NCBI GenBank assembly: GCA_030753015.1
Contig: JASMDC010000064.1
Span: 1 to 12,047, forward strand
Length of the DNA stretch: 12,047 bases
Direction of reading: 5' to 3'
Source of the DNA: Candidatus Undinarchaeales archaeon
GTDB lineage: Archaea; SpSt-1190; JASMDC01
The notes under the pieces were generated by a model that worked only from the letters and a program-made list of their open reading frames with translations, was not told the origin of the DNA and searched no databases. Both the position numbers and the translations under genes were made by a program. Shown here one piece after another: positions 6,700-7,896 of this stretch. Within the stretch, counting starts at the first letter, position 1; every line of letters starts with the position of its first letter.

Positions 6700-7896
6700 A
6701 TGATCCCCTCCTCCAAGCCCCTGCGTGTGCTTTCGGTGGAGCTGGGGAACACAACGACCAAGTGCATCCTCGTCGAGACCGACCTTGACGACGGCACTTC
6801 CCGCATAGCGGCCCGACACGTGGACCGGACCCGGTCCATTGCGGCCAAGGACGGCTTCGCCCGGACCGTGTGGGGGTACGCTATCACCGAAGCGGGCGTC
6901 AAGGACATCGTACGCCGCTCGATCAACACAACGCTCCTACAGTCCCGACTCTCGGCCCGTGACCTGGACTTCGTGGTGCGGTCCACGGGAGTGACCGCTG
7001 GGTTCTCATCGCCCGAGGATGTGGGCACCCTCATCAAGGCCCTTGCCGACGCATGCCTGGCCGCAGGTGTCGAACCGCGCCAGATGATCGCGCCGCTCGC
7101 TGCTGACAACCTAGCACCCAGGCTCCGCGCCCATTCAATCATCGACCGTTCGACGTTCACCGGATCGGTGGCAGGCACGCTCCCACCGGGTGAGCCCGTG
7201 GCCGCCAACGAGATGGAGGGAGAGCTGGTGACCGCGGGGCTCAAGGACCATGCCCGGGCGAGCGGATGTCCATTCCGCAATCCCTACCTTGCCCTGGACT
7301 TCGGCACCACTCTCGCTGGTCGCCTCATCGACGACGAGCGCAGGACCGTGGCCACCTTCGCAGGCCTTGCCGGTGGCATCCTGGACGCTGTGGCACAGGG
7401 GTGCGGATTCACATCGGCGATGGATGTCCCGGTACGGCCGGGACGGACGGACCGGCACTCGGAAGGGATCATGGAGCTGGTGGAGATAGGCCCCGTGCGC
7501 ACGGGTGACCGCGTGGGGACCGTCCCCGTCGATCCTGTGGCCGCCTCGCGCGCAGGGGTAACGGTCATCGGATGCAGCGCCGACCTGGACGCGATCACGT
7601 CCGCATCCCGTGACGTGGCTCCCGGCCATCTCTCATGCGTGCTCGACGGACTGGCGGTGGGATTGTTCGACCGGTTGCTCGCTTCTGTGGAGGAGGCGGG
7701 GCTGGACGTGCCCGACAGTGTCGGCATCACGGGCCGTGGCGCGACCACTGGCGCCAAACCTGAACTCTTACGCGAGCGCGTCCCGGCCATCACCATCGTG
7801 GACGACGGCCTGGCACGTGGAGCGGCAGTGATGGCGATGTGCATGCTCCGATTATGTCGACCCCATGGACGGATGGGCGGCTGCCCACTGGCATGA
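6700..7896 (+). CDS. Methanogenesis marker protein 14 (DUF2114)-like protein with ASKHA/actin-like ATPase motifs
   Basis: Recognised family motifs SVELGNTTTKCIL, RTVWG, DLDFVVRSTGVTAGFSSPEDVG..IKALA..CL.AGV.P, ANEMEGELVTAG.K, FRNP...LDFGTTLAGR, GLAGGI.D, GITGRG..TG.KP and DDGLARGAAVMA.CM. The start is re-assigned to ATG 6700, 4 nt after the mtrH stop, giving 398 aa. Confidence 0.87.
   Translation: MIPSSKPLRVLSVELGNTTTKCILVETDLDDGTSRIAARHVDRTRSIAAKDGFARTVWGYAITEAGVKDIVRRSINTTLLQSRLSARDLDFVVRSTGVTAGFSSPEDVGTLIKALADACLAAGVEPRQMIAPLAADNLAPRLRAHSIIDRSTFTGSVAGTLPPGEPVAANEMEGELVTAGLKDHARASGCPFRNPYLALDFGTTLAGRLIDDERRTVATFAGLAGGILDAVAQGCGFTSAMDVPVRPGRTDRHSEGIMELVEIGPVRTGDRVGTVPVDPVAASRAGVTVIGCSADLDAITSASRDVAPGHLSCVLDGLAVGLFDRLLASVEEAGLDVPDSVGITGRGATTGAKPELLRERVPAITIVDDGLARGAAVMAMCMLRLCRPHGRMGGCPLA

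Follow-up and report, generated by a model that had tools for sequence, protein, structure and literature searches.

Methanogenesis marker 14 beside MtrA and MtrH in an Undinarchaeales archaeon: a predicted ASKHA-fold protein and candidate maintenance factor of the MtrA cobamide

Introduction

What does a protein named for methanogenesis do in an archaeon in whose genome no gene for methyl-coenzyme M reductase (MCR) was found? The question is raised by contig JASMDC010000064.1 (C78) of a Candidatus Undinarchaeales assembly, which we analysed whole, at its full length of 12,047 bp, and call the window. In it the gene for methanogenesis marker 14 (DUF2114) directly follows genes for MtrA, the corrinoid protein of Mtr, and MtrH, a methyltransferase subunit.

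In methanogenesis the step that pumps sodium and conserves energy is catalysed by Mtr, whose cobamide is functional in the Co(I) and methyl-Co(III) states only. Corrinoid methyl carriers fail through oxidation to Co(II). RACo and RamA are characterised ASKHA ATPase activators of other corrinoid methyltransferase systems, and diol dehydratase reactivase (DDR) and EutA are ASKHA ATPases that repair adenosylcobalamin enzymes. The need for Mtr cofactor activation is acknowledged in print, and in a 1988 study Mtr activity in cell extracts reportedly needed ATP and reducing conditions; to our knowledge, no reactivation factor has been assigned for Mtr. An earlier note, made from the sequence of the window, proposed that marker 14 carries ASKHA ATPase motifs and may be the ATP-dependent activase or cofactor chaperone of MtrA.

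We favour, at a probability of roughly 0.45, the reading that marker 14 is a nucleotide-dependent ASKHA accessory of the MtrA/MtrH module, working as a nucleotide-driven maintenance factor of the MtrA cobamide. Three components of this reading, namely the use of ATP, MtrA rather than MtrH as the client, and reduction rather than loading of the cofactor, are ones that we infer; the fold, the family conservation, the phylogenetic distribution and the gene neighbourhoods on which the reading draws are described below.

The mtrA-mtrH-marker 14 operon

Three genes on the plus strand form the locus.

5119..5775, plus strand: MtrA-like corrinoid protein, soluble, 218 aa (PF04208, E = 6.3e-48, residues 5-160)
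5769..6695, plus strand: MtrH, methyl-tetrahydromethanopterin:corrinoid methyltransferase subunit, 308 aa (PF02007, E = 1.2e-102; TIGR01114, 350.9 bits against a cut-off of 271.4)
6700..7896, plus strand: methanogenesis marker 14 protein (DUF2114), 398 aa, predicted ASKHA fold (TIGR03285, 335.5 bits; PF09887, E = 4e-101)

The mtrA and mtrH genes overlap by 7 nt, and the ATG of marker 14 lies 4 nt past the mtrH stop codon (6693-6695). On both sides the trio is flanked by genes on the opposite strand that seem unrelated to it (a YlqF-like GTPase, and a gene with no Pfam match that was read by eye as a membrane protein); the operon therefore consists of mtrA-mtrH-marker14 alone. The start codon of the MtrA-like open reading frame is uncertain, the first in-frame start being the TTG at 5119. 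Residues Gly77-His78 of this MtrA are invariant across 14 MtrA sequences (alignment A2) and stand at what we take to be the lower cobalt ligand position. The C-terminal membrane helix is absent, and in its place a soluble tail of ~60 aa (residues ~150-218) aligns with the tail of Thorarchaeota MtrA.

The same operon occurs in a genome of the same genus (G001), with amino acid identities of 84% for mtrA, 95% for mtrH and 90% for marker 14. Between the window's genome (G000) and G001, dN/dS is 0.093 for marker 14, compared with 0.051 for mtrH and 0.150 for mtrA. Marker 14 is kept by purifying selection in this MCR-less lineage, and its dN/dS rules out the reading of the gene as a decaying remnant.

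Family membership and motifs

The marker 14 score against TIGR03285 exceeds the cut-off of 274 bits, with the match spanning profile positions 4-429 of 446. The window protein is a short form: listed homologues have a median of 480 aa, and in a 24-sequence alignment the N-terminal extension typical of the family, several loops and the basic C-terminal tail are missing from it. Its closest database relatives, of 415-524 aa, are 39-44% identical in the BLASTP listing and 42-46% identical in the 24-sequence alignment. Conservation was measured over 123 sequences: the window protein and the other homologue-search proteins (120 together) plus three copies from genomes. Motifs and cysteines that stand out in this set are as follows, the secondary structure being that of the AlphaFold model described below.

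6733..6762, plus strand: phosphate-1 motif S12-VELGNTTT-K21, on the beta1-beta2 hairpin (strands 8-15, 19-27)
7207..7227, plus strand: connect-1 motif N170-EMEGE-L176, at the N-terminus of the inter-domain helix 171-188
7294..7311, plus strand: phosphate-2 motif L199-DFGT-T204, on the first hairpin of domain II (strands 196-201, 204-210)
7723..7737, plus strand: adenosine motif G342-ITG-R346, at the strand-to-helix turn 340-349
7804..7824, plus strand: connect-2 motif D369-DGLARG-A375, at the start of the last helix 370-382
7840..7884, plus strand: invariant cysteines C381 and C395 (100% in 123 sequences)

Residues E14, G16, N17, T19, K21, D200, G202, T203 and T204 are 100% conserved, as are G342, T344, G345, R346, D369, L371, A372 and G374. 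In connect 1, N170, M172 and E173 are 100% and E171, G174 and E175 98% conserved; this motif is preceded by a low-confidence loop (154-164). After phosphate 2, G207 is invariant and R208 is 98% conserved. Since the motif residues are invariant in 123 sequences, they define the family and are not chance matches. At columns conserved to at least 97% the window protein deviates only at R39 (K), I62 (L), A118 (G), S293 (D) and C386 (G). A further cysteine, C119 (7054-7056), is 98% conserved, and C381 and C395, perhaps with C119, may form a metal, cluster or thiol-redox site.

The protein is thus the marker 14 that the earlier note had named, and the four motifs reported there (SVELGNTTTK, LDFGTT, ITGRG from 7726 and ARGAA from 7813) are all present at these positions; to them we add a fifth, the N170-EMEGEL stretch at the connect-1 position.

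Predicted fold and the kinase alternative

An AlphaFold model of marker 14, built from the 24-sequence alignment, has a mean predicted local distance difference test (pLDDT) of 84.9 and a predicted template modelling score (pTM) of 0.85; low-confidence parts are confined to residues 1-4, 154-164 and 389-398, and the tail 389-398 falls below a pLDDT of 50. It contains two RNase-H-like domains (beta-beta-beta-alpha-beta-alpha-beta-alpha) with a cleft between them. Foldseek found 500 or more matches in the PDB at E <= 0.001, and all 37 that were listed are ASKHA proteins, among them TsaD/Kae1, the ATPase subunit of 3-methylbenzoyl-CoA reductase, sugar kinases, AnmK, CoaX and MreB, with RACo at rank 20 (E = 5.8e-8). 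VIA-align against representative structures gave a best 50 with Z from 17.3 to 11.7, again all ASKHA (for example FtsA 16.8, the 2-hydroxyisocaproyl-CoA dehydratase activator 15.4, EutJ 14.6 and diol dehydratase reactivase 14.6). When VIA-align was applied to the top 1000 of Foldseek, AnmK came first (Z = 18.7, 303 residues, root-mean-square deviation (rmsd) 4.7 A), with the 3-methylbenzoyl-CoA reductase ATPase subunit at Z = 17.2 (243 residues, rmsd 3.4 A) and 2-hydroxyacyl-CoA dehydratase activators at Z = 16.2 and 15.3. The fold matches extend across residues 5-398.

All five ASKHA motifs are in place, model secondary structure and family invariance being in agreement. Because all listed fold matches are to ASKHA structures and the motifs fall on the expected elements, we regard the ASKHA assignment, made on a predicted structure, as solid; it is also what the earlier note had proposed from the motifs. 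The modelled fold does not assign marker 14 to any one ASKHA sub-family. Beyond DUF2114, no usable Pfam family was found in 24 members at E <= 10; BcrAD_BadFG (PF01869) was touched by one of the 24, at E = 0.051. By language-model features the nearest clusters outside DUF2114 are all EutA, at 0.83, which is below the 0.9 bar and serves as a lead only.

The top-ranked folds suit another function, that of a small-molecule kinase or phosphotransferase for a metabolite required solely in cells with a working canonical MtrA/MtrH module, for example in cobamide or pterin tailoring. AnmK is accompanied near the top by levoglucosan kinase (17.0), the putative sugar kinase MK0840 (16.9) and CoaX (16.5), and the catalytic motifs are intact throughout the 123 sequences. 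However, AnmK and levoglucosan kinase, the best overall fold matches, differ from marker 14 in sequence (identity 10-14%); no kinase profile was matched; the Z gap to non-kinase ASKHA proteins is less than 2; and the genomic context of marker 14 is unrelated to the cell-wall sugar recycling of AnmK. The tight operon holds two protein components and no other biosynthetic gene, so a protein client fits better. We consider a kinase unlikely, and the distribution of the family, described next, bears on it as well.

Marker 14 tracks MtrA, not mcrA

We searched 301 archaeal genomes from 119 families with five profiles. The sampled genomes are related to one another, so that the counts are not independent events.

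Marker 14 profile: 51 of 301 genomes
mcrA profile: 51 of 301 genomes
MtrA profile: 98 of 301 genomes
RACo C-terminal domain profile (PF14574): 74 of 301 genomes
Ftr profile: 101 of 301 genomes

MtrA is present in every marker-14 genome (51/51), and marker 14 occurs in none of the 203 MtrA-negative genomes. In this sample marker 14 never occurs outside MtrA genomes, whereas its link to mcrA fails in both directions. Ten genomes have marker 14 with no mcrA match (G000, G001, G023, G046, G114, G135, G147, G157, G193 and G269), the absence from G147 being uncertain since 276 kb of its DNA lay outside the search. Another ten have mcrA without marker 14; six of these are family f26, with MtrA in 0/6 and RACo-like activators in 6/6, and the other four are f35, with divergent mcrA-like genes. 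The earlier note had offered co-occurrence with mtrA rather than mcrA as a check on its proposal, and the sample comes out on the side of mtrA. Its premise that only MtrA and MtrH were kept agrees with the window's genome (98.9% complete by marker genes), where profile searches found neither mcrA nor MtrE.

The word methanogenesis in the family name might imply that marker 14 instead serves MCR, in its maturation or activation. In its favour, mcrA accompanies marker 14 in 41 of the 51 genomes, and several methanogen families have mcr, mtr and marker 14 genes within about 10 kb. Against this stand the two sets of ten genomes just described, the first including the nearly complete genome of the window, and the fact that MCR-less genomes keep marker 14 beside MtrA/MtrH under purifying selection; the search entry for the paper on the MCR activation complex, too, has no mention of marker 14. 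A role in MCR is very improbable indeed.

Ftr, a marker of the tetrahydromethanopterin (H4MPT) pathway, is found without marker 14 in 53 of its 101 genomes and is missing from three genomes that have marker 14, so the presence of that pathway does not by itself account for marker 14. A metabolite kinase is not favoured by this pattern either, as the distribution follows neither general cobamide use (family f26) nor the H4MPT pathway.

PF14574 was not found in G001, nor in two methanogen families with Mtr and marker 14 (0/6 and 0/10 genomes). A clean complementarity between RACo/RamA and marker 14 was considered and rejected: the two are jointly absent from many MtrA-family genomes and jointly present in others.

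Gene neighbourhoods and the regulatory alternative

Public loci were fetched by the most conserved peptides of the family; 599 candidate stretches yielded 582 confirmed relatives, of which the best 80 were examined. Of these 80, 25 have MtrH upstream of marker 14 in the same orientation; roughly a dozen loci extend less than 3 kb upstream and say nothing either way. By record title the MtrH-linked loci belong to Methanobacteriaceae, Methanocellaceae, one 'Methanomicrobiales', Thorarchaeota, Promethearchaeota and unclassified archaea. When genes up to three positions away from marker 14 were clustered, in the 81 loci where its open reading frame was callable, MtrH was the commonest neighbour family (24/81 loci, at position -1 in 18), and MtrA was a neighbour in 14.

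Linkage is no looser in the MCR-less genomes. With G147 excluded, six of the nine mcrA-less marker-14 genomes, including the window's, have marker 14 within about 1.7 kb of MtrA. In G114, G135, G193 and G269 the end of MtrA is ~1.2 kb from marker 14 on the same strand, and the order in G135 is MtrH2-MtrA-MtrH-marker 14, as in Thorarchaeota. The marker 14 of G157 is very divergent (32% identity to that of the window) and is arranged back to back with a fusion gene. The exceptions to MtrA adjacency among the MCR-less genomes are G023 and G046; in G023 the MtrA genes are on other contigs and marker 14 overlaps a MetE-like gene by 4 nt.

L093 (G157:C15), 3050-4681, plus strand: 544-aa MtrA-MtrH fusion; 1535-2872, minus strand: marker 14
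L094 (G023:C28), minus strand: marker 14 (2245-3582), MetE-like gene (1319-2248) and thymidylate-synthase-like gene (673-1326)

In two other genomes of the family of G157, MtrA is encoded in similarly long frames and marker 14 is absent.

Genes directly upstream of marker 14 bring in a different candidate role, in which it would partner MtrH/MtrA without enzymatic activity or as a regulator: as a scaffold, or a switch that senses nucleotide, it would make methyl transfer depend on energy or redox state. A thioredoxin gene is directly upstream on the same strand in 12 loci, mostly under record titles of Methanosarcinaceae genera or Methanosarcinales (L012 5503-5925 and L062 5545-5946; also L019, L023, L049, L060, L065, L073, L077, L078, L080 and L083), which, taken with the invariance of the cysteines, suggests a possible link to thiol redox chemistry. 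A universal stress protein is upstream in 8 Methanobacteriaceae-type loci, marker 14 directly follows mtrH in the 18 loci counted above, and small proteins modulating Mtr, MtrI and MtrR, have been described (PMC12774963). The invariance of E14, K21, E173, D200, T203 and T204, on the other hand, exceeds that of a usual sensor, and we judge a purely regulatory role improbable.

Other neighbours recur downstream. DUF1890 (at +1 in 15 loci) and DUF1894 (mostly at +2, in 16 loci) follow marker 14 in ANME-2, Methanoperedens and Methanocellaceae (for example L009, 7676-8158 and 8137-8421; L040, 7371-7823), so that marker 14-DUF1890-DUF1894 is a conserved and uncharacterised trio. In Thorarchaeota-type loci, genes of the F420-ligase family (CofE-like) and LarC-like 'nickel insertion' genes follow on the same strand (L014, 2884-3822 and 4044-5414; same in L028, L035, L041, L048, L061, L081 and L095).

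The genome and the rest of the window

The window is the entire contig from an assembly of 3.85 Mb with 60% G+C, estimated by marker genes to be 5% contaminated. The genome has one copy of marker 14 and two MtrA-MtrH pairs, the second with no marker 14 alongside.

G000 contig C52 (L006), minus strand: second MtrA-MtrH pair (8647-9366, 7721-8650) and, directly after it, a MetE-like gene (Meth_synt_2, 6813-8036)

The C52 trio looks like a three-part corrinoid-dependent methionine synthase fed from methyl-H4MPT. The G023 locus listed above is a second, independent tie of marker 14 to MetE-like methyltransferases, the family seen at C52. An acetyl-CoA synthase subunit (CdhC) and two Ftr matches are present in the genome; no RACo/RamA homologue (PF14574) and no F420-dependent Mer were found in it. 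This gene content suggests a marine water-column archaeon with a partial tetrahydromethanopterin C1 pathway and no methanogenesis. The other sampled members of its taxonomic class have genomes of 0.6-1.2 Mb and no marker 14.

The stretch is found nearly intact in marine, seawater and hydrothermal-vent metagenomes from 12 studies, ten rows of which are possible sources of the assembly; in an independent marine run, 4300-8800 is covered by gap-separated contigs with zero differences. Two RNA libraries from two studies gave contigs that match the window at 100% identity, over 5643-5885, 7248-7398 and 7421-7571 (X19) and over 7584-7792 (X20). These contigs are assembled, the libraries may contain DNA, silent control stretches are uninformative and the uncovered parts carry no meaning, so we take them as a weak hint that parts of mtrA/mtrH and of marker 14 are transcribed.

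Two further genes of the window are unrelated neighbours.

840-3092, minus strand: DUF255 thioredoxin-domain protein, 750 aa
8992-11313, minus strand: archaeal RecJ/DHH-family nuclease, 773 aa, with a long C-terminal extension

Comparison with known systems

RACo and RamA (COG3894) share with marker 14 an ASKHA ATPase domain (RACo chains 3zyy and 4c1n, Foldseek E = 5.8e-8 to 8.2e-8) and a genetic link with a corrinoid protein of methyl transfer; the job proposed for marker 14, bringing Co(II) back to Co(I) at the expense of ATP, would be theirs too. They differ in that marker 14 has no PF14574 match and a TM-score to RACo of only 0.40. Marker 14 is also about 400-490 aa long, against open frames of 440-730 aa around the PF14574 matches of the sampled genomes.

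Diol dehydratase reactivase and EutA are likewise ASKHA ATPases that service cobamide enzymes, and the alpha subunit of the former (2d0o) aligns with marker 14 at Z = 14.6, but marker 14 has no match to PF06277 or to a DDR profile. DDR and EutA swap damaged adenosylcobalamin in radical enzymes, whereas MtrA is a methyl-carrier corrinoid protein that fails by oxidation.

The 'archerases' HgdC and BcrAD are compact ASKHA ATPases and give the lowest-rmsd matches (9gai_O, Z = 17.2 at 3.4 A; 4ehu_B, Z = 16.2 at 3.4 A; 1hux_A, Z = 15.3). By analogy the function of marker 14 would be ATP-coupled injection of a low-potential electron. HgdC holds a [4Fe-4S] cluster that bridges the dimer through two cysteines per subunit; a conserved cysteine pair is found in marker 14 too, but elsewhere in the chain, in the C-terminal tail.

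Connectase resembles marker 14 in being another MtrA-dedicated protein of methanogens, and differs in being a proteasome-beta-like ligase, not an ASKHA protein. Its authors suggest as a possible role the swapping of MtrA catalytic domains that are not alike, in cobalamin incorporation for instance (PMC7980362). Connectase recognises KDPGA. The window MtrA has KDYPGG at that site, and Connectase processing has therefore probably been lost in this lineage.

Proposed mechanism

ASKHA proteins have precedents in cobamide repair, Mtr has no assigned factor and no RACo-type gene was found in the genome; together these lead us to marker 14 as a maintenance factor of the MtrA cobamide. In the cycle that we envisage, MtrH would transfer methyl-H4MPT's methyl group to the Co(I) cobamide of MtrA, and occasional oxidation would leave the MtrA cofactor inactive as Co(II). 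Marker 14 would bind the Co(II) form, and ATP binding or hydrolysis would enable one-electron reduction to Co(I). Since an Fe-S domain is not part of marker 14, the electron would be supplied by an outside donor (ferredoxin or a thioredoxin-type protein) or travel by way of Cys381/Cys395. ATP-dependent loading or exchange of the cobamide is the alternative task; we rank reductive reactivation as likeliest and loading or exchange second.

Several observations weigh against a maintenance role of this kind. Phosphate 1 of marker 14 has Glu14 at the position where most ASKHA enzymes have Asp. PDB searches by sequence (phmmer) or with a family profile returned chance-level rows only, and the PF14574, EutA and DDR profiles gave zero matches among 24 family members at E <= 10. 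RACo is outside the best 50 by Z; the closest folds, which also cover the most residues (303-320 of 398), are the anhydro-sugar kinases, so the fold is equally compatible with a small-molecule kinase. RACo and RamA carry an N-terminal [2Fe-2S] or 2x[4Fe-4S] domain that delivers the electron, whereas the marker 14 sequence has no N-terminal Fe-S domain; a Pfam search found no Fe-S motif or domain anywhere in it, the only conserved cysteines being C119, C381 and C395. A search among proteins of 698-2000 aa likewise turned up no fusion of marker 14 to a corrinoid or Fe-S domain, which is weak evidence. Marker 14 is lacking in 47 of the 98 genomes with an MtrA-family match (12 with MtrA at 150 bits at least), so MtrA-like proteins can work without it. 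PF14574 and marker 14 coexist in families f44, f63 and f11, and in the loci of Methanosarcinales, Methanococcales, Methanothrix and Methanoperedens marker 14 does not adjoin mtr.

The earlier note pointed to the MtrA corrinoid rather than to MCR. The distribution upholds the turn away from MCR, since marker 14 follows mtrA and not mcrA, but it does not single out MtrA, as MtrA and MtrH always come together and are not separable as partners. Complex prediction of marker 14 with MtrA/MtrH from three alignments (A1-A3), run with no controls, gave interface scores (ipSAE) of 0.36, 0.00 and 0.00, a median of 0.00 against a mark of 0.32, which bears on binding in neither direction.

A fuller version of the maintenance reading is possible, though doubtful. 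Marker 14 would then be the missing ATP-dependent reductive Mtr activase. It would represent a third type of ASKHA corrinoid activase, one lacking an Fe-S domain and found in each of the 41 sampled genomes that combine mcrA, MtrA and marker 14. It would predate the loss of MCR in Thorarchaeota and in this lineage, and would act through its C-terminal cysteine pair with ferredoxin or thioredoxin. In MCR-less archaea it might sustain a soluble MtrA/MtrH that feeds MetE-like methionine synthases or the acetyl-CoA pathway.

Relation to published work and significance

The methanogenesis markers were defined by phylogenetic profiling, and the family and its name have been known since then (PMC3226654). 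Adam et al. 2022 describe a marker m26 as 'tied to Mtr' and place it in Thorarchaeia and Bathyarchaeia with Mtr (PMC9635834). Its distribution matches that of marker 14, and the two may be one and the same; Connectase is a possible alternative identity of m26, and the terms 'connectase' and 'DUF2121' are absent from the main text of that paper. Our literature search returned no paper naming DUF2114, PF09887 or TIGR03285, two that mention COG4065, and no proposed reactivase role for marker 14. A word search of two Mtr structure papers and a 2026 preprint found no mention of marker proteins. The link between the gene and Mtr is thus probably in print already. What appears to be new, within the reach of our literature search, is the mechanistic proposal together with the fold evidence and the co-occurrence numbers.

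A named, conserved candidate gene makes the question of Mtr activation testable at the bench. If marker 14 maintains the MtrA cobamide, this would explain why non-methanogenic archaea that keep only MtrA and MtrH have retained it, and the theme of ASKHA corrinoid activases would extend to a form with no Fe-S domain of its own. If it should turn out to be a kinase or a regulator instead, marker 14 would still be the one uncharacterised methanogenesis marker with a clear partner module.

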